A stretch of DNA of 63,747 nucleotides, filler included. It is 10 parts of 10 records of this genome, joined end to end, with 100 filler letters (N's around TTAATTAATTAA, not from the genome) between each part and the next. Parts side by side here need not be neighbours in the genome. Positions count along the whole stretch, not along the records: positions 32,009 to 38,108 come from SRR31147125_85416; 9 more parts are not named here. The stretch is one strand, 5' to 3'. Below, in pieces: positions 5,371 through 58,480 of this stretch. The notes beneath the pieces are model-generated. The model was given only the letters and a program-made list of their open reading frames with translations, was not told where the DNA came from and ran no database searches. The translations under genes and the position numbers were made by a program. Within the stretch, counting starts at the first letter, position 1; the number at the start of each line of letters is the position of its first letter.

Positions 5371-5470
5371 NNNNNNNNNNNNNNNNNNNNNNNNNNNNNN
5401 NNNNNNNNNNNNNNTTAATTAATTAANNNNNNNNNNNNNNNNNNNNNNNNNNNNNNNNNNNNNNNNNNNN
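5371..5470. other. Artificial contig spacer (N44-TTAATTAATTAA-N44)
   Basis: The same 100-nt spacer recurs at 10524-10623, 15987-16086, 23771-23870, 31909-32008, 38109-38208, 45106-45205, 51352-51451 and 58381-58480. The core gives stops in all six frames. Confidence 0.97.
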
Positions 5471-6315
5471 CCAAGAAGCGGATTGGCACTCAGACCTGAG
5501 AAGGCATCAGACCCGCCACACTTCAAACCGATCTTCAACCTGCTAACAGGTGTAGGCTCAGGCTTGAAGCCTGCAGCATAACCAGCAAGATCAGCAAGAA
5601 TATTCTTTGCTTCCTCTTCTTCATCCTCGACATCCTGAGTAATCAGAAAACGAACTCTCTGAGAATCATAATCACCTAGTACTTCCTTGAAATCAGCAAC
5701 CTGATTATTCTCACATCCAAGCCCGAGCACAAGTACTCCACCAGCATTAGGATGAGCTACCAGACCTGCAAGAACTTCCTTTGTCCGCTCATGGTCACCA
5801 CCAAGCTGAGAACAGCCGTATGGATGCTCAAACGCATAACACCCATCCACACCATTGACAGCAAGTGCAGCATTTACCTCACTAGCAATCTTCCTTGCAG
5901 AAGCATTGACACAGCCGACAGTCGGAATTATCCAGAGTTCATTGCGAATTCCAACGCTACCATCTTTTCTATGATAACCAGCAAAAGTTTTTTCAGCCAG
6001 CTCACTGTAAACATCCTGATGAGGCGGTACAAGTACAGGCTTCTCTGTAAAGTCACCACTCAGAGCAGTCCCTACATTATGATCATGCACATGCTCTCCA
6101 ACAACAATATCATCTTTTGCAAGACCAATGCGAAAGCCGTACTTGGTAATATCTGAACCTTTACTGATATCTGTAAGGGCAAATTTATGCCCTGCCAGAA
6201 TATTGCTCTTCAAAACAATTCTCTCTCCATCGACTTCAGTAAAGTCTCCAGCCTGCAGCTCTACAATTGCCACAGCTACATTGTCCTGAGCATGAACTTT
6301 GATAACATTATTCAT
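5471..6315 (-). CDS. uxaA: Altronate dehydratase (UxaA), 3' truncated
   Basis: SAF domain DNVAVA...GHKFAL...KYG; GIRNELWIIPTVGCVN, HPYGCSQLG, GLGCENN, GLKCGGSD. ATG at 6315 after a GAGG RBS. Confidence 0.92.
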
Positions 6316-10369: not shown

Positions 10370-10623
10370 TTTATATACCTTTTAATAAGTAATCAGTCAG
10401 GACTGAAAATTTTCCATTAATTTTTAAAGTAACAGCCATACCCCTGCACAACATTTGCATATGCCATGCGAATATCAAAGATACAGACCGCTATAGAATT
10501 CATGCCAGTTTGATAACACAAAANNNNNNNNNNNNNNNNNNNNNNNNNNNNNNNNNNNNNNNNNNNNTTAATTAATTAANNNNNNNNNNNNNNNNNNNNN
10601 NNNNNNNNNNNNNNNNNNNNNNN

Positions 10624-15986: not shown

Positions 15987-16114
15987 NNNNNNNNNNNNNN
16001 NNNNNNNNNNNNNNNNNNNNNNNNNNNNNNTTAATTAATTAANNNNNNNNNNNNNNNNNNNNNNNNNNNNNNNNNNNNNNNNNNNNAAAATGTTGAAATA
16101 AATATATTAATCCC

Positions 16115-23695: not shown

Positions 23696-23870
23696 AAGTG
23701 CTTTTATTCCTGATCAAGCAGTTTATAAACCTCTATTATTTTGCTTGTAAGGGTTTTGTTGCTAGCAAAANNNNNNNNNNNNNNNNNNNNNNNNNNNNNN
23801 NNNNNNNNNNNNNNTTAATTAATTAANNNNNNNNNNNNNNNNNNNNNNNNNNNNNNNNNNNNNNNNNNNN

Positions 23871-31464: not shown

Positions 31465-31908
31465 TTATCTTGCTAACCAACCACCATCAACAGCTAAAGT
31501 ATATCCGTTTACGTAGTCCGATGCGCTTGATGCCAAAAATACTACCGGTCCTGCTAAATCTGATGGCAGCCCCCATCTATCTGCAGGAATTCTTTCTAAT
31601 ATTGCTTTTGATCTTTCAGGATCATTTCTTAGAGCTTCTGTATTATTTGTTGCCATATAACCAGGTGCTATTGCATTTACATTGATATTATGTTTAGCCC
31701 ATTCACAAGCAAGTAGTTTAGTTAATCCCATAACACCACTTTTACTAGTTGTATAAGATGGAACTCTTATTCCACCTTGGAAAGATAACATAGATGCAAT
31801 GTTTATTATTTTTCCACCTGAATTTTGTTTAATAAACTGTTTAGCAGCAGCTTGAGCAAAGAAGAAAACTGTTTTTGAGTTAATGTTCATTACATCATCC
31901 CAATCTTT
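31465..31908 (-). CDS. kduD: 2-dehydro-3-deoxy-D-gluconate 5-dehydrogenase (KduD), 5' truncated
   Basis: GGKIINIASMLSFQGGIRVPSYTTSKSGV, EWAKHNINVNAIAPGYMATNNT, AVDGGWLAR. Confidence 0.93.
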   Translation of the reverse strand, partial: KDWDDVMNINSKTVFFFAQAAAKQFIKQNSGGKIINIASMLSFQGGIRVPSYTTSKSGVMGLTKLLACEWAKHNINVNAIAPGYMATNNTEALRNDPERSKAILERIPADRWGLPSDLAGPVVFLASSASDYVNGYTLAVDGGWLAR

Positions 31909-32021
31909 NNNNNNNNNNNNNNNNNNNNNNNNNNNNNNNNNNNNNNNNNNNNTTAATTAATTAANNNNNNNNNNNNNNNNNNNNNNNNNNNNNNNNNNNN
32001 NNNNNNNNGGGGAGTGAAAAC

Positions 32022-32555
32022 GTGATCCAGATAAAGGATACATCCATTTTTTATATCTGTACGCTCACAGGCGATGCGGACGGCCTTGAGGATGTGGAAT
32101 TGCCCATCAGTTCCTTGAGGGCAACCCGGCGAAGCGGATCCTTATCTTATCTTTATGTGGTGGTCCCCTCGTTCAAATTTCTGTCAGCAATCAATGCCCG
32201 CCCCCATGGAGATATCAAAATCGATATCGGTTACATGGTTAATGGCGAGATGCTGCGCGAATTGTTTATGGCGGTCAATTTCAACAATCCCCCTCGTTTA
32301 GATCGGGGACCGAAAAGCCAATCAATCACGTTGTCCGGATCGAAAACAACCACCTATGCATCAAAATCTGCCGTATTGTCCGGAGCGACCTATTACAGTC
32401 AATCGTCCGGAAGAAACAGATTGCGGATTGCAGCCACCTATACCGGCTTGAATCCCGGAGATGTGGTCACGGCATCCGGCTACACCTTCCCGGCGGATAT
32501 CATCACATACATGATTACGCCCAAACGGCAATATATCGAGATTGCGGAAATATAA
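32022..32555 (+). CDS. Hypothetical phage tail protein (possible tail hub)
   Basis: 177 aa, GGGGAG RBS, stop overlaps next start (TAATG). Tail assignment rests on context and recalled similarity only. Confidence 0.5.
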   Translation: MIQIKDTSIFYICTLTGDADGLEDVELPISSLRATRRSGSLSYLYVVVPSFKFLSAINARPHGDIKIDIGYMVNGEMLRELFMAVNFNNPPRLDRGPKSQSITLSGSKTTTYASKSAVLSGATYYSQSSGRNRLRIAATYTGLNPGDVVTASGYTFPADIITYMITPKRQYIEIAEI

Positions 32556-32908
32556 TGGGAAAGGGGACGATCATCTCCGGTGGTGCCGGTGGGAAATATA
32601 CCGTCCGGATCAATTACGATCGGACACAATACGACAATACCATGGCCGCATTGGATACTCTGATCGATGATACACTTGCGGAGATGAAGGAAAAGCAGGA
32701 AGAGATCGAGGACAAACTGATCGAGATATCAGACTTGATCGAAGAGGCGCATCAAGCGGCAGTCGATGCAATTGGAGAGGACCCATATACGGATCCGCAG
32801 CCGGTGACAGACCCGGAACCGGATGAAGATCCGGAAGAAGAATCAGACCCCACGGACACAGATACAGAAACCGGTACCGGGTCCATTGCCGGTACCGTAA
32901 CGGATTGA
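32555..32908 (+). CDS. Putative tail protein N-terminal part: beta head, coiled coil, acidic Pro/Thr linker and terminal strand GSIAGTVTD
   Basis: 117 aa; heptad segment MAALDTLIDDTLAEMKEKQEEIEDKLIEISDLIEE; linker PQPVTDPEPDEDPEEESDPTDTDTETG; ends TGA TGA. Confidence 0.6.
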   Translation: MGKGTIISGGAGGKYTVRINYDRTQYDNTMAALDTLIDDTLAEMKEKQEEIEDKLIEISDLIEEAHQAAVDAIGEDPYTDPQPVTDPEPDEDPEEESDPTDTDTETGTGSIAGTVTD

Positions 32909-32917
32909 TGAGGAATT

Positions 32918-33226
32918 ATGGCAGCATTAGAAAACGTCCAGGTCACAGCCTATCGATATAAAACCTTCACCGGCGGCGGGCAGTGGGTGGTTGCCGGAAC
33001 GGCAGTCACGGCAGCCGACGGTACCTATACAATATCCGGATTGCCCGCCGGGAATTACAAGCTTCGGTTTCTCCATCCGGATGGAACCTACATCACAGAG
33101 TACTGGACGGGGCACTCATCTTTGAGCGAGGCCACGGAGTTTACCCTGGCCGACTCCCAGGTCATGACCGGGAAAGATGCGGGAATGGCATCTGCTGCAT
33201 CCATTTCTGGCACAGTGACAGGATGA
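32918..33226 (+). CDS. Stand-alone circularly permuted CnaB/carboxypeptidase-regulatory-like beta-sandwich
   Basis: LENVQVTAY...W...TAADGTYTISGLPAGNYKLRF is a typical CarboxypepD_reg/CnaB-type repeat. The usual first strand (SISGTVT) is at the C-terminus. Own RBS GAGGA; ends TGA TGA. Confidence 0.7.
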   Translation: MAALENVQVTAYRYKTFTGGGQWVVAGTAVTAADGTYTISGLPAGNYKLRFLHPDGTYITEYWTGHSSLSEATEFTLADSQVMTGKDAGMASAASISGTVTG

Positions 33227-33230
33227 TGAA

Positions 33231-34808
33231 ATGGGCTTGAAAGAAGATTTTGACAATGCATTCAAGGAAGAGCTGAACAAGCGAGCGGATAAGATCGGTG
33301 AGCTTGAAGCGGCGATCATGTTTCTTGAGGGGCAGATCAATATCCTCCATGCTCAGGTGCTTACCTACGTCAAGAAAAAGGATTATATCGATGCCAACAC
33401 TCCGGATGATTTCAATCTTGCAAATGTTTGGTGTGCCGATCTGAGTGAAAGTCTGACGGGTGAGGTGGGAACCATCGAGATTCCCGGTGAGGTGGGCGTA
33501 GTTCAGATTCAACCTAACGGTCCCACCGGAGATGCGGCTGTATATGATGGAGAGCGAGATGGACAGTTAACTCCCACCGTCACCATGACACCTGCCCAGG
33601 CGTTTTATAATTTGGCGATTCTTCCGGGATGGCAAAAATGGAATCCCCTTTATCGCCATGGAATTATCACCGGGATCGATACGGATGCCGACACGGCAAC
33701 GGTGGAGTTATCCGAATGCATTTCAAGCCAGGGGGGTCTGGATGTGCGATTCCCGGATCCGGATCCGTTGACCGATGTGCCCATCTCGTACATGACATGC
33801 AACAGCAACGCATTCCAAGTGGGGGATGAGGTGCTGGTGAAATTCGGGGAGTCCTTTGGGCAAAGCCCATCGGTTATTGGATTCAAGGAAAACCCACGCC
33901 TCTGTTCCGACGGCGATCTGCTTTTTATCTGCCAGAATGCCATGGATTACACCATATGGGGATTCACGGAAAACTATATTTGGACACAGTTGCCGGAGCT
34001 CCCCATCAGTGGCGTTCCTTATTGGGTATCACTGGCGTGGGATGGCTCGCACTATTTTGTTCAGACATTTGATCCTATGCGGGTTTGGAAACTCGATACA
34101 ACGACTTTGCAGTGGGAGGAATTTTTTACATTCAATTTCCCAGATCAATATTCCAGTGCCACCTATTTCATCCAGGCGACATTTATTCGTTTTTTGGGGG
34201 ACGATACCGTTTATCTGAGGCCATATGTCAATCACGATACCGAGAGGGATCTATGGGGACTCAATCTTCAAACCGGAGAGTGGGCACTTGAAGCGCAATT
34301 TCAGGATTCCGGAGGGCGCAACTCCGGTAATGCGCAATATTTTTACTGGCATTGGCCAGCCTGGGACGGCACCTATCTGAAAATGATCTGGCATGACTAT
34401 TCTGTCTATGGGGACTATCCGTTTTGGTCCCGCTACGGAAACAACGGCGTTTCATATCCGGGTTCCCTGTTGGCACCGGGGCTGTTTGTTCAGCCGGGAC
34501 GGATTTTGTACGCCAACGGTGAAACCTATGCGGAGGGGGCGGATCATTCGATTTTGAAAAATAACGGTGACCAGTCCGTGATCAGAAAATATCACAGCCC
34601 CGGGTTCCATTGGAGCAGACAGGCCATTTCGACCGGAGAGGATTTTATCTGTAAAAACGAGGATGACCAAACCGTCTGGCGGTTCGATGGCGCAGATTGG
34701 GAACAGGTCGCTGACAGTCCCGGCTTTTATTGGCGTGACCCGAAATATGTCGGAGAGCTGAACATAGACACCGGCCTTCCGGCAGTCGACACATTTACGA
34801 TTACATAG
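33231..34808 (+). CDS. Putative tail tip protein: coiled coil, OB-like region and aromatic beta-rich C-terminal domain
   Basis: 525 aa; N-terminal heptads; GIITGID...ATVEL...VPISY...FQVGDEVLVKF...PSVIGF resembles a spike OB fold; Trp/Tyr-rich repeats (LAWDG, VWKLD, VWRFDGADW) suggest a beta-propeller. Confidence 0.55.
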   Translation: MGLKEDFDNAFKEELNKRADKIGELEAAIMFLEGQINILHAQVLTYVKKKDYIDANTPDDFNLANVWCADLSESLTGEVGTIEIPGEVGVVQIQPNGPTGDAAVYDGERDGQLTPTVTMTPAQAFYNLAILPGWQKWNPLYRHGIITGIDTDADTATVELSECISSQGGLDVRFPDPDPLTDVPISYMTCNSNAFQVGDEVLVKFGESFGQSPSVIGFKENPRLCSDGDLLFICQNAMDYTIWGFTENYIWTQLPELPISGVPYWVSLAWDGSHYFVQTFDPMRVWKLDTTTLQWEEFFTFNFPDQYSSATYFIQATFIRFLGDDTVYLRPYVNHDTERDLWGLNLQTGEWALEAQFQDSGGRNSGNAQYFYWHWPAWDGTYLKMIWHDYSVYGDYPFWSRYGNNGVSYPGSLLAPGLFVQPGRILYANGETYAEGADHSILKNNGDQSVIRKYHSPGFHWSRQAISTGEDFICKNEDDQTVWRFDGADWEQVADSPGFYWRDPKYVGELNIDTGLPAVDTFTIT

Positions 34809-34819
34809 ATGAGGACATT

Positions 34820-35203
34820 ATGGCAATTTATGCAAACGACAGCGTGATGGACGGCGCACTGGACGTCATCGCTACTGCAAATCAGATGGATGTAACTAGT
34901 GACGTGTCGACACCGACAAACCTGGATAATTCTCTTGCCGATACCAGCCTGACGCCGGGGAACGGGAACGGGGATTTTACCATATCAAATGGAGATACTT
35001 CCGGAAGGAAGATAACCGTTGCCCAGCAAACCGACGTTGATATCTCCCTTCCGTCCGGAAGCGGGGTGGCCCGGCACATTGTGCTGAGTCTCAACGGGAC
35101 AATTCTTTATTCAACAACTTGTGCAGAGCAAACGCTATATGCCGGTGGCAAGGTTACCATTCCGGCATTTTCAGATGAAATAGGCGATCCGGTGGGAGTG
35201 TAA
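34820..35203 (+). CDS. Hypothetical phage virion protein
   Basis: 127 aa, GAGGA RBS; DFTISNGDTSGRKITVA...EIGDP resembles small siphovirus tail-region proteins from memory. Confidence 0.55.
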   Translation: MAIYANDSVMDGALDVIATANQMDVTSDVSTPTNLDNSLADTSLTPGNGNGDFTISNGDTSGRKITVAQQTDVDISLPSGSGVARHIVLSLNGTILYSTTCAEQTLYAGGKVTIPAFSDEIGDPVGV

Positions 35204-35207
35204 TGTA

Positions 35208-36434
35208 ATGGCCTATATCCAACGCAAATATGATTTTGCCAGCGCCGCAGGCTCCAACAATGCGGAAAAAACCGCGTCCATCATTTTTGATGCTATTGAG
35301 GCCATGGGGTTTGAGCTGCATGATCAGATATCCACCTATGAACGGGTTTATAAAACTCAGGGAGAGGCAGAAACCGGCCACTATTCATACTTCTGGATAG
35401 ATGGGGATAGCAACTCGTCATATATCTATTTCAAAACATATGGAGCCTGGGACGCAACAACGCACACAGGATATTTTCCGTCTCAGCAGTTAAACCGTAG
35501 CGCTGGGGCACCCACATATCTGGTTATTGTTGGCAACGCCGATTTCATGACGTATTTCATTGATTCCGGCTCTAATGTTTATTTGCAAAGTGGGTTTGGA
35601 CGTGTTCCGAATATCTATTACAACCCTGTAGCTACTCTGTCCGGTGGGGTGACGTCCGGCAGTGACAAAACATTGACGGTAAATAGTACGGCAGATTTTT
35701 TTGCCGATACAAAATACTGTATTGTCGATCAAGCCAACGGCGTCATTGAAATGTGTACAGTGACGGCTATTAACGGCGATACGTCCATGACCGTTGATTC
35801 GCTTTCAAACAGCTATGCGGCAGGCTCATTGATAGGCATTTCTCCGTTCCACTTCTCTTTTATAATCAGTGCCTCAAATCTGTATTATTGCTGCGGCCTG
35901 GCCACTTCGTCCACAAACAATAAGATCATTCCACTGGAAGAAATCACTTCAACGATCAGCACGACCACACCCTTTCAAACGCCGGTTTTCTGCAATGTAT
36001 GTGCTGATGTCCGAACTGAAACCGCCATGTATGCCAATACAGTGGAAACAAAGTTCGGAAATTTCGAGCAGACCGGCGAGACATTCCCCCCAATGGTTTG
36101 GGCACCGTCATCCGTCAGTGAAGAGACTTTGTTCGCAATAAAGATGGCCATACCGATTACCGGGATCGCATCCAGTTCGACAGCAACAACCCTTACCGAC
36201 AATACAAAGTCATGGACCACAGATGAACACCAGGGAAAGATCGTTGCAATAACCGGAGGGGCCGGAGAGGGGCAGTTAAGGCAGATTGTGTCGAACACTG
36301 CGACGACATTGACGGTTTCCGATGATTACACCATAGGCGTTACCTCGTGCTCATATGAAATTATTGAAGTCGCATATAATCGAATCGCTACGTCAGGCAA
36401 TATTTTATATCGCGTAACAAACATGGATCTGTGA
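35208..36434 (+). CDS. Putative tail fibre/receptor-binding protein, paralog A
   Basis: 408 aa, Thr/Ser-rich, carries the KSWT...GQLRQIVSNTATTLTV module; GGGAG RBS. Confidence 0.55.
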   Translation: MAYIQRKYDFASAAGSNNAEKTASIIFDAIEAMGFELHDQISTYERVYKTQGEAETGHYSYFWIDGDSNSSYIYFKTYGAWDATTHTGYFPSQQLNRSAGAPTYLVIVGNADFMTYFIDSGSNVYLQSGFGRVPNIYYNPVATLSGGVTSGSDKTLTVNSTADFFADTKYCIVDQANGVIEMCTVTAINGDTSMTVDSLSNSYAAGSLIGISPFHFSFIISASNLYYCCGLATSSTNNKIIPLEEITSTISTTTPFQTPVFCNVCADVRTETAMYANTVETKFGNFEQTGETFPPMVWAPSSVSEETLFAIKMAIPITGIASSSTATTLTDNTKSWTTDEHQGKIVAITGGAGEGQLRQIVSNTATTLTVSDDYTIGVTSCSYEIIEVAYNRIATSGNILYRVTNMDL

Positions 36435-36437
36435 AAA

Positions 36438-37811
36438 ATGTATATCCAAAAACAGACTCAACCCATAAGCACGGCACAGACTGCAGCCGGAGCAGAGAGC
36501 AGACTTGCATTTTTTCATACTCATTTACTGTCCGCCGGTTATACACTCCACGACACGGACACCTATGGATATTACGTTTATAAAACAAACGGCAATAATT
36601 CAGATCGACCGGATGTATATGTCAATGTTCAAGCCGTTAACTCCACAAGCGACCCCATTGTCCGTGCGGAGTTGTCGGATAGTAGCGGGACAACACAGCC
36701 ATATCACGTTAGCCTTGTATTTCACGGCAGGTGGGACGCATCCACACATTCGGGAGACTTTACCTGCGACAAGGTTGTGGAGTTGCCGATAGTGTGGCCA
36801 TACGCCGTTTTTATATCAAAGGATTTTATTTTCGCAGTAGCACAACAAGAGAACGCATACGGATTTAATTCTCACATGCGGGGAGCCTCATATTGCCTTG
36901 ATTTGCCATACAATCCAAAGGCAGTTTTAGCCTCCGGCATTTCACCGGGAAGCGCCGTCACTGTTGATGTGGATTCCACAGACGGCTTTTTGACGGGCAG
37001 TAGATATTATCTGTTCGATTCGTCAACCGGCGCATATTGTGAGGCCACGATCTCATCAATCATTTCAGGTACCCAATTGGTTTTGGATTCCGTTACAGGC
37101 TCGTTCACTTCCGGGGCTGTATTGGCATTGTTTCTATTTGATTTTTTCGGTGTATATCCATACTCCAGCATCAATGCACCTGGCGAAATAATCCATTACC
37201 CAAATGCGTCAAAGCCCTCAGATGTGGATATCTATTCGTATTTATACGGAGAAATAACGACCAACCCCATGGGCATTTTTCAATCTCGAGTCGTGGGATA
37301 CATCTCAATACTATGTCAATGGGAGCTGGATTATTACCCGGATATCTATTTGGATAATCATTTAAAAGAACCTGACGCAATGATTCCCATCGGATCCATG
37401 CAATGTGATGACATAAAAGATGTCCCCATATTTGGGGTATCCGGCGCAGATGCCCAAGATGAATTTTTATGCCTCCACAATTCTCCGCGTGAGATGGGAT
37501 TGTGGGAGTCCGGCGGATCAAAGGCGTCAAACACCGTCACAATAAAGGGCAAGTCGTGGACAATAAATCAGTGGGCAGATCACATCCTTTGTGTGATCTC
37601 CGGTACCGGACGGTTTCAATTTAGATCCATTCAATCCAACACCGCCGACACCATCACCGTTAAAGATGATTTTTATAAATCGTTGGCAGGGGATTCTGTG
37701 ATCGAAATTTTCAAAAAAGTCGTTTGGTCTGCAGGGATCGATTCCGGAGATGAATTGGGGTTCGGCATTCAGTGCCATAACGGACCTGATGAGGCAATCC
37801 AATGGTCATAA
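36438..37811 (+). CDS. Putative tail fibre/receptor-binding protein, paralog B
   Basis: 457 aa, same order of motifs as 35208-36434 (LHD..YKT.G, WDA.TH.G.F, V.ST..F, KSWT...R.I.SNTA.T.TV). Confidence 0.55.
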   Translation: MYIQKQTQPISTAQTAAGAESRLAFFHTHLLSAGYTLHDTDTYGYYVYKTNGNNSDRPDVYVNVQAVNSTSDPIVRAELSDSSGTTQPYHVSLVFHGRWDASTHSGDFTCDKVVELPIVWPYAVFISKDFIFAVAQQENAYGFNSHMRGASYCLDLPYNPKAVLASGISPGSAVTVDVDSTDGFLTGSRYYLFDSSTGAYCEATISSIISGTQLVLDSVTGSFTSGAVLALFLFDFFGVYPYSSINAPGEIIHYPNASKPSDVDIYSYLYGEITTNPMGIFQSRVVGYISILCQWELDYYPDIYLDNHLKEPDAMIPIGSMQCDDIKDVPIFGVSGADAQDEFLCLHNSPREMGLWESGGSKASNTVTIKGKSWTINQWADHILCVISGTGRFQFRSIQSNTADTITVKDDFYKSLAGDSVIEIFKKVVWSAGIDSGDELGFGIQCHNGPDEAIQWS

Positions 37812-38108: not shown

Positions 38109-38208
38109 NNNNNNNNNNNNNNNNNNNNNNNNNNNNNNNNNNNNNNNNNNNNTTAATTAATTAANNNNNNNNNNNNNNNNNNNNNNNNNNNNNNNNNNNN
38201 NNNNNNNN

Positions 38209-45105: not shown

Positions 45106-45333
45106 NNNNNNNNNNNNNNNNNNNNNNNNNNNNNNNNNNNNNNNNNNNNTTAATTAATTAANNNNNNNNNNNNNNNNNNNNNNNNNNNNNNNNNNNNNNN
45201 NNNNNTAATTTCGTGCAAAAGTTCGGTAATTACATTTCTTAAATTGAACACATTTAAACAACCTTTGATTTCGATAATTAAATTATAATGATAAATGGTC
45301 ACATTTCCTAGTTAACTGAGATTATACTTTTAC

Positions 45334-51351: not shown

Positions 51352-51451
51352 NNNNNNNNNNNNNNNNNNNNNNNNNNNNNNNNNNNNNNNNNNNNTTAAT
51401 TAATTAANNNNNNNNNNNNNNNNNNNNNNNNNNNNNNNNNNNNNNNNNNNN

Positions 51452-58380: not shown

Positions 58381-58480
58381 NNNNNNNNNNNNNNNNNNNN
58401 NNNNNNNNNNNNNNNNNNNNNNNNTTAATTAATTAANNNNNNNNNNNNNNNNNNNNNNNNNNNNNNNNNNNNNNNNNNNN

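Follow-up and report, generated by a model that had tools for sequence, protein, structure and literature searches.

The window analyzed here, that is, the whole stretch of DNA of 63,747 nucleotides (nt; positions 1-63747, 63.7 kilobases, kb), is a composite in which about ten unrelated contigs, each 5-8 kb long, are linked by runs of N around TTAATTAATTAA. One of these, a 6.1-kb contig of phage DNA (32010-38108, G+C content ~49%), carries seven open reading frames (ORFs) of 177, 117, 102, 525, 127, 408, and 457 amino acids (aa), all of them on the + strand. The subject of this work is the group formed by the 117-, 102-, and 525-aa frames, hereafter ORF1, ORF2, and ORF3, in which the two parts of a conserved tail protein flank a small beta-sandwich domain that is itself divided between two genes. 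The gene architecture is real and unusual, and its possible meanings are weighed below.

The Locus and Its Junctions

The features of the locus are the following:

32022..32555, + strand: gene of the tail module, located upstream, 177 aa, homologous to the last 170 aa of a 489-aa protein of Marinobacter phage PS3
32555-32908, + strand: ORF1, 117 aa, ending ...GTGSIAGTVTD, then TGA TGA
32555..32617, + strand: ORF1 residues 1-21, N-terminal beta-hairpin motif MGKGTIISGG..GKYTV, which defines the tail protein family
32621..32779, + strand: ORF1 residues 23-75, putative arm 1 of a helical hairpin, from the alignment with fused homologs
32780..32881, + strand: ORF1 residues 76-109, acidic linker rich in proline, EDPYTDPQPVTDPEPDEDPEEESDPTDTDTETGTG, belonging to the insert and absent from fused homologs
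32882..32905, + strand: ORF1 residues 110-117, SIAGTVTD, first strand of a CarboxypepD_reg-like domain
32906..32917, + strand: junction 1, TGA TGA GGA ATT, tandem stop and GAGGA Shine-Dalgarno sequence (32910-32914)
32918..33226, + strand: ORF2, 102 aa, transthyretin-like/CnaB-like repeat unit without its first strand
33200-33223, + strand: last 8 residues of ORF2, SISGTVTG, first strand of a next unit that does not exist
33224..33230, + strand: junction 2, TGA TGA A, tandem stop; AGGA located 7 nt upstream of the ORF3 ATG
33231..34808, + strand: ORF3, 525 aa, with arm 2, the WCADL...PGWQKW domain, and a lineage-specific C-terminal part
33237-33386, + strand: ORF3 residues about 3-52, putative arm 2 of the helical hairpin
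33393-33908, + strand: ORF3 residues about 55-226, conserved WCADL...PGWQKW family domain
33909-34805, + strand: ORF3 residues 227-525, C-terminal half, rich in Trp, Tyr, and Phe

ORF1 and ORF2 lie in one frame, TGA TGA GGA ATT being their sole separation, and ORF3 lies in the +1 frame. The C-terminus of ORF2, ...ASAASISGTVTG, is again followed by TGA TGA. An initial annotation of this DNA, made from its letters alone, had drawn attention to the likeness of the two gene ends, and its account is accurate: the 30-mers at 32882-32911 and 33200-33229 share 22 of 30 nt; four of the mismatches are synonymous, being third-position changes in the G, T, V, and T codons, and the remaining four fall in two residue-changing codons (A/S and D/G). 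The likeness of the two junctions ends after about 33 nt. The ribosome-binding site that it had assigned to the 102-aa frame is likewise present, with GAGGA located 3 nt upstream of the ATG of ORF2. A nearly identical initiation region, GATGAGGA.ATTATG, precedes the unrelated 127-aa ORF at 34820, which indicates that a signal of the GAGGA type is the normal start signal of this phage. Both restarts comprise a Shine-Dalgarno sequence and an ATG no more than 8 nt from the stops, as at a genuine junction of the same contig. No significant RNA structure was found at junction 1 (z = -1.47), and no stable one at junction 2 (z = +2.24).

ORF1 and ORF3 as Parts of One Tail Protein

By sequence, ORF1 and ORF3 correspond to a single conserved phage tail protein, ORF1 to its N-terminal and ORF3 to its C-terminal part. 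The first 226 residues of ORF3 are similar to a central stretch of an 856-aa protein from Marinobacter phage vB_MalS-PS3 (MF959999.1, ATN93331.1; tblastn 4e-24), with ORF3 residues 12-226 aligned to residues 80-284 of that protein (BLASTP 3e-34), and ORF1 residues 1-75 align to its residues 1-81; the acidic linker of ORF1 has no counterpart in it. PS3 is described as a lambda-like temperate siphovirus (PMC8424206). In its tail module, the family member is encoded by the last large gene, located four genes past the one for the tape measure, and the gene that precedes this fused family member (489 aa) is syntenic with the 177-aa ORF of the window (BLASTP 1e-18, 33% identity over 172 aa). The 177-aa ORF, which starts 13 nt from the contig edge, has 68 matching pieces in the fetched loci (tblastn).

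A search with ORF3 residues 1-230 returned 164 homologs at E<=1e-3. The ORF1 motif, in the form MGKG.I.SGG..G.Y.V, opens 112 of the 120 homologs listed among them, the remaining eight being three truncated fragments and five proteins with a different start. Relatives of ORF3 are encoded by 234 stretches in IMG/VR. In 75 of 80 IMG/VR loci the motif stands in the same open frame as the rest of the protein (69 by a first pattern and 6 more with GTG starts or variant motifs); of the other five, two are truncated at a contig edge and three show a split or a frameshift (L008, L032, and L061), with hairpin breaks in 3 of the 78 assessable loci. The features common to the family, namely the motif, a helical region, and the WCADL/PGWQKW domain, are present at the locus and colinear, the motif in ORF1 and the domain in ORF3; what is missing is the single polypeptide, which is interrupted by two tandem stops and one frame change. 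The 117-aa protein, which the initial annotation regarded as the anchor of a fiber, is not a free-standing anchor. It is the N-terminal fragment of a tail protein that continues in ORF3. A scan of IMG/VR for close relatives with ORF3 alone returned nothing. The C-terminal half of ORF3, without a match in 101 fetched loci, is presumably a lineage-specific receptor-binding part.

Neither Pfam nor PHROGs contains a family for ORF1, ORF3, the PS3 protein, or two other homologs. A match of ORF1 to ISG65-75 (19.5 bits, under the cut-off) was rejected, as it looks like coiled-coil noise.

The Site of the Cut

In the AlphaFold2 (AF2) model of a fused homolog, P0034, built from 60 sequences, two strands (residues 2-9 and 14-21) are followed by a helix (23-63), a loop (64-67), and a second helix (68-105), and the predicted local distance difference test (pLDDT) values are 94-98 over all of these elements. 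Among 92 fused homologs whose helical regions measure 39-165 aa, the strongest helix-breaking window, rich in Gly/Pro, falls at 0.5-0.6 of the region in 51 cases; in 61 cases it falls at 0.5-0.7. Secondary structure, confidence values, and the central loop together suggest that the N-terminus of the family is a beta-hairpin followed by a helical hairpin with arms of equal length. At the locus, about 52 helical residues are found in ORF1 (23-75) and about 50 in ORF3 (3-52). Compared with the fused homologs, ORF1 residues 76-117, ORF2, and the first residues of ORF3 are extra; since everything between the two arms is extra, the insert sits at the tip of the hairpin.

A Foldseek comparison of P0034 with the PDB gave only weak rows, the best one with chain F of the phage E217 baseplate (E 5.6e-3) and further ones with the Mu baseplate, VgrG, and P2 gpV. 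Most of these rows belong to central-spike or baseplate proteins and are a hint, short of a finding, that the conserved WCADL/PGWQKW domain may be a spike-like oligonucleotide/oligosaccharide-binding (OB) fold.

In the three broken IMG/VR loci, every break falls within the helical hairpin. In L008 (632-3507) the family member is in three pieces: a 53-aa N-terminal piece with the motif, a 265-aa ORF in another frame that is repetitive, fiber-like, and rich in Ala, Ile, Thr, and Ser, and a 651-aa body. A protein of 681 aa (P0045, four member sequences) resembles the start of this body, and thus the L008 split is present in more than one data set. In L032 (5553-6798) and L061 (about 5795-6000) the N-terminal piece and the body lie in different, overlapping frames; these breaks may be frameshift errors, programmed shifts, or real splits.

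The Inserted Domain

On its own, ORF2 matches the Pfam family CarboxypepD_reg (PF13620) with 27.8 bits over profile positions 13-57 of 82, below the cut-off of 32.3, and its SdrD_B and SpaA scores are also slightly under their cut-offs. When the last 12 residues of ORF1 are placed before ORF2, with X at the stops, the score rises to 37.4 bits over positions 1-57 and passes the cut-off. The cut-off is reached with both parts only, so that the domain belongs to CarboxypepD_reg only if both genes are counted. The extension of the match to profile position 1 identifies the tail of ORF1 as the first strand of the domain itself. The beginning of the ORF2 match at position 13 agrees with the claim of the initial annotation that this frame starts after the first strand.

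Among 1.84 billion representative sequences, ORF2 has 10,197 matches at E<=1e-3. The best 150 of them are all proteins of 930-7021 aa with 7-42 matched stretches each, many of which span query residues 2-102. Compared with 23 repeat units, one from each of 23 giant proteins, ORF2 shows 32-46% identity from end to end and keeps five of five invariant columns, and its last 12 residues correspond, in an alignment free of gaps, to the inter-unit linker and the strand that opens the next unit. After the first strand, the repeat units read P-D-G-I-T-P-L-E-N, and the window reads stop-stop-G-I-M-A-A-L-E-N. A profile built from the repeat units and run on the six frames of the contig found ORF2 only, with no second acceptor domain.

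The AF2 model of the ORF2 monomer has a mean pLDDT of 94.5. In this model residues 31-44 (pLDDT 98), which include GTYTISGL (35-42), and residues 93-102 take part in no beta ladder. By VIA, the model resembles the transthyretin-like domain of carboxypeptidase D (5aq0_B; Z 8.2, root-mean-square deviation 1.9 over 70 aa), 1qmu_A (Z 7.8), and SdrD, UafA, and CnaB2 (Z 7.1-7.2), while Foldseek gave weak rows only (best E 0.023). For any model the best score is usually close to this Z of 7-8, and the fold match is therefore to be counted together with the sequence matches. Taken in that way, ORF2 is predicted to have a transthyretin-like fold.

Predicted Strand Donation from ORF1 to ORF2

By its Pfam register, its alignment with the repeat units, and its AF2 monomer, the ORF2 subunit is a fold short of one strand. 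The missing strand is predicted to be supplied in trans by the tail of ORF1. In complex predictions of ORF1 residues 76-117 with ORF2, made without alignments and in runs that differ by seed only, the interaction prediction score from aligned errors (ipSAE) was 0.70, 0.71, and 0.70, and the best of three controls reached 0.00; the ipSAE mark applied is reached by 51 of 78 solved complexes and by 2 of 108 mismatched pairs. The runs have at least 96% of contacts in common, and the partner pLDDT is at least 79. In the predicted complex, ORF1 residues 109-115 run antiparallel to ORF2 residues 35-42 (contacts 111:39, 113:37, and 115:35) and parallel to residues 83-88 (contacts 111:83, 114:87, and 115:88), and this slot is the native place of the first strand. 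ORF1 residues 98-103 and 105-109 also touch ORF2.

It was precisely such a trans insertion that the initial annotation had expected from a complex of the two proteins, and the prediction supports it; the monomer that completes its own fold, which the same annotation had named as grounds for giving up the idea, is not what AF2 builds.

A Proposed Split Tail Protein and Its Alternatives

On balance, the locus is probably a three-way split of one conserved tail protein gene around an inserted domain, with pieces that would reassemble noncovalently. The homology, the split, the register of the strand, and the occurrence of the stops in the assembly are shown. In the relatives, this protein is a single chain composed of the beta-hairpin, the putative two-armed helical hairpin, the WCADL/PGWQKW domain, and a variable C-terminal part; its gene, the last large one in the tail module, has the tail-fiber or tip position. 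In the phage studied here, the hairpin tip would have gained a cassette made of the acidic linker and one CarboxypepD_reg/CnaB-like (transthyretin-like) repeat unit, of the kind found in giant tandem-repeat surface proteins. Translation would stop and restart at both ends of this unit, each time in the loop that follows a first strand. ORF1 would then provide the anchor hairpin and the first helix arm, together with the linker and the initial strand of the domain; ORF2, the remainder of the domain and an additional, spare copy of that strand; and ORF3, the second helix arm and the body. The products of ORF1 and ORF3 would pair via the two helix arms, as their fused relatives suggest, the terminal strand of ORF1 is predicted to complete the ORF2 fold in trans, and the outcome would be a small domain displayed at the tip of a stalk. 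The split itself would be functional, and the spare strand of ORF2 may be a vestige or a handle for more copies of ORF2.

Several points weigh against this proposal. Searches of the 120 homologs and two phage proteins (phmmer, E<=10) and of the 80 IMG/VR loci (tblastn, E<=0.01) revealed no ORF2-like domain. ORF1 resembles no protein of comparable length, and just one fragment is similar to ORF2. A pattern search for the strand followed by the tandem stop (I-x-G-T-V-T-[DG]-TGA-TGA, a narrow pattern that misses variant strands) gave 2 matches in IMG/VR and 17 in metagenomes, none of these 19 in a comparable context: the upstream frames are short or unrelated, and no domain lies downstream. The initial annotation had suggested viral databases as the place to find the same split, and the arrangement occurs in no other sequence searched. 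Being a singleton, it offers no conservation evidence for a functional split. The in-frame continuity and the spacing kept across junction 1 are what a recent interruption of a continuous gene is expected to leave. The pairing of ORF1 with ORF3 is drawn by analogy from the fused relatives, the helical hairpin is a reading of secondary structure, confidence values, and a central loop, and the complex prediction may have passed by likeness, that is, because the two chains are pieces of one known fold.

An alternative explanation is that the gene is in recent decay, which appears unlikely and still has to be taken seriously. It supposes a tail protein with an in-frame decorative domain at the hairpin tip that was hit by nonsense mutations, in a defective phage, a prophage, or a variant, with pieces that stay unassembled or are not all made. 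Decay would fit the isolation of the arrangement, the preservation of the frame between ORF1 and ORF2, the domain spacing kept across the stops, and a family that is nearly always fused and in which L032 and L061 look like plain frameshifts. It has more difficulty with the two tandem TGA TGA pairs, which occupy homologous loop positions and each of which has a Shine-Dalgarno sequence and an ATG in the next 8 nt, like a real junction of the contig. Moreover, ORF2 is undegraded, as seen from its invariant columns and the pLDDT of its model, the two strand copies differ at four of six synonymous sites with the peptide kept, and the contig has a depth of 107. The initial annotation had reasoned that homologs always found as one fused repeat protein would imply decay; this applies in part, since homologs of the flanking protein are nearly always fused, yet none of them carries an ORF2-like domain, and no fused ancestor with such a domain was found among 122 family proteins and 80 loci.

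The explanation put forward in the initial annotation itself goes further than the split tail protein: the tail of ORF1 would prime a head-to-tail polymerization in which each ORF2 subunit gives its C-terminal strand to the next one, resulting in a nicked-repeat fiber of variable length. This is rather improbable, even if its priming step has the in silico support described above (ipSAE 0.70) and the AF2 monomer leaves both slot and tail unpaired. The spare strand of ORF2 differs from the ORF1 strand at two of eight residues, and its linker aligns without gaps to a natural inter-unit linker, so that a polymer would copy the geometry of natural tandem arrays; as far as sequence can tell, a spare strand on a linker of native length would make such an assembly sterically natural. 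Against it stand the single ORF2 gene, the lack of a second acceptor domain on the contig and of a chaperone-like gene in its 6.1 kb, and, once more, a singleton arrangement. In addition, the spare strand may simply be left over from the donor repeat protein, and the proposal leaves out that ORF1 and ORF3 are halves of one protein.

A recoded product, either one long protein or an ORF1-ORF2 fusion, would require that TGA TGA be read through, by a suppressor tRNA or a code with TGA as sense, and that a +1 shift take place at junction 2. The shared frame of ORF1 and ORF2 and the complete Pfam domain of the read-through product agree with this, and a suppressor tRNA could lie elsewhere, the contig being only part of the phage. 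Nonetheless, the chances of recoding are very small. TGA ends the 408-aa ORF exactly at the end of its 561-aa homolog in L035, the 525-, 408-, and 457-aa ORFs contain no in-frame TGA, and the contig does not have the characteristics of a TGA-recoded phage. Tandem stops argue for efficient termination, ORF3 is in another frame with no slippery site at the junction (by eye), the contig lacks a tRNA, and neither junction has a stable RNA structure. A programmed hop or frameshift was also considered and rejected, with no matching take-off and landing codons, no slippery run (by eye), and no RNA structure. That the stops are false, created by assembly or sequencing, is hardly credible. The window is indeed built of short metagenomic contigs, and one sample only holds the sequence. 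However, a contig of a second assembler (8558 nt, depth 107, from the probable source run) contains all 6099 nt with 0 differences and with no indels or variants listed near either junction, continuing for another 2.46 kb on the upstream side, and the stops of both junctions are thus present, at the contig level, in an independent assembly; this second assembly consists of contigs only, from the same sample, and minor variants could still exist. Four stops, two starts, and two ribosome-binding sites are, besides, not typical of errors.

The Contig and the Rest of the Window

The remaining observations concern the surroundings of the locus. The contigs of the window, with G+C contents from 31% to 57%, are joined by spacers, and therefore genes on either side of a spacer are not neighbors in any genome. 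The N spacers are located as follows:

5371-5470, 10524-10623, 15987-16086, 23771-23870, 31909-32008: N spacers
38109-38208, 45106-45205, 51352-51451, 58381-58480: N spacers, continued

An SDR gene (31465-31890) is truncated by a contig end. At the 3′ end of the phage contig (37984-38108), 13 mismatches separate it from another contig of the same run (377 nt, depth 93), which suggests a related strain or a repeat at the contig edge. In run X2 of the same sample the stretch was not found, which is no evidence of absence. The 408- and 457-aa ORFs (35208-37811) share a frame, with only TGA AAA between them; the L035 homolog of the former terminates at this very point, which makes the TGA a true stop and the common frame a coincidence. 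The 408-aa ORF has no match among isolated phages.

Comparison with Known Systems

Among the closest known systems is the PS3-type tail protein itself, in which the motif, the helical region, and the WCADL/PGWQKW domain follow one another as they do across ORF1 and ORF3 and which has the same upstream neighbor. The members of that family are one polypeptide without a beta-sandwich insert, whereas here there are three pieces and a foreign domain at the hairpin tip. In the CarboxypepD_reg (PF13620), SdrD_B, and CnaB repeats, the resemblance is to single units of proteins of 930-7021 aa, to which ORF2 is 32-46% identical; the difference is that here a single unit is found, with its register shifted by one strand and its first strand on another gene.

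Fibers built by donor-strand complementation or exchange include the chaperone-usher pili, the type V pili, the archaeal Tafi, and TasA. Donor-strand exchange in Tafi is described in a preprint (bioRxiv 10.64898/2026.09.13.751334). As in these fibers, an incomplete beta-sandwich would be completed by a strand of another chain, and the subunit has both a slot and a spare strand. However, the fold is another one, the missing strand is the first and is donated from a C-terminus, assembly would be cytoplasmic, and there is no homology to pilins. None of the seven ORFs in these 6.1 kb of phage matches a chaperone, usher, or activating protease family. No donor-strand-built phage appendage is described in the full-text literature covered, in which most subscription journals are missing.

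The SpyTag/SpyCatcher pair is reported as an engineered split of the CnaB2 domain (PMC12384687). There too, a CnaB-type domain is divided into a short peptide, one strand long, and a remainder of ~100 aa, and the two come together again spontaneously; in contrast to the natural split described here, that pair is engineered, is joined by a covalent Asp-Lys isopeptide bond, and uses another strand as the tag. The ORF1 strand has no lysine; isopeptide residues were not looked for more widely. Accessory immunoglobulin (Ig)-like domains are also present on phage structural proteins, some of them added by programmed frameshift. They share with ORF2 the character of a small, dispensable-looking beta-sandwich that decorates a tail protein; the known ones are covalent, while the domain of ORF2 would hang on a borrowed strand.

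Significance

Should the gene simply be in decay, the locus would have little to offer except for pointing to the hairpin tip as a hot spot of insertion and breakage in this family. If the pieces reassemble, it would be a natural example of a tail protein divided into three at a helical hairpin tip, and a natural case in which a virion protein and an accessory domain are linked by a borrowed beta-strand and not by the peptide chain. This would give phages a route to add, swap, or titrate decorative or adhesive domains without rebuilding the fiber gene, and it would provide a small noncovalent tag/catcher pair of natural origin. Should ORF2 also polymerize, donor-strand assembly would be extended from pili to viruses. 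In that case, for which the odds are low, a covalent tandem-repeat stalk would have been turned into a self-assembling one, that is, a nicked-repeat fiber of adjustable length, made of a 102-aa subunit from one gene and set on the tip of a split helical stalk. Such a fiber would be the first virus appendage built by donor strands and the natural counterpart of the split-CnaB tag/catcher pairs.

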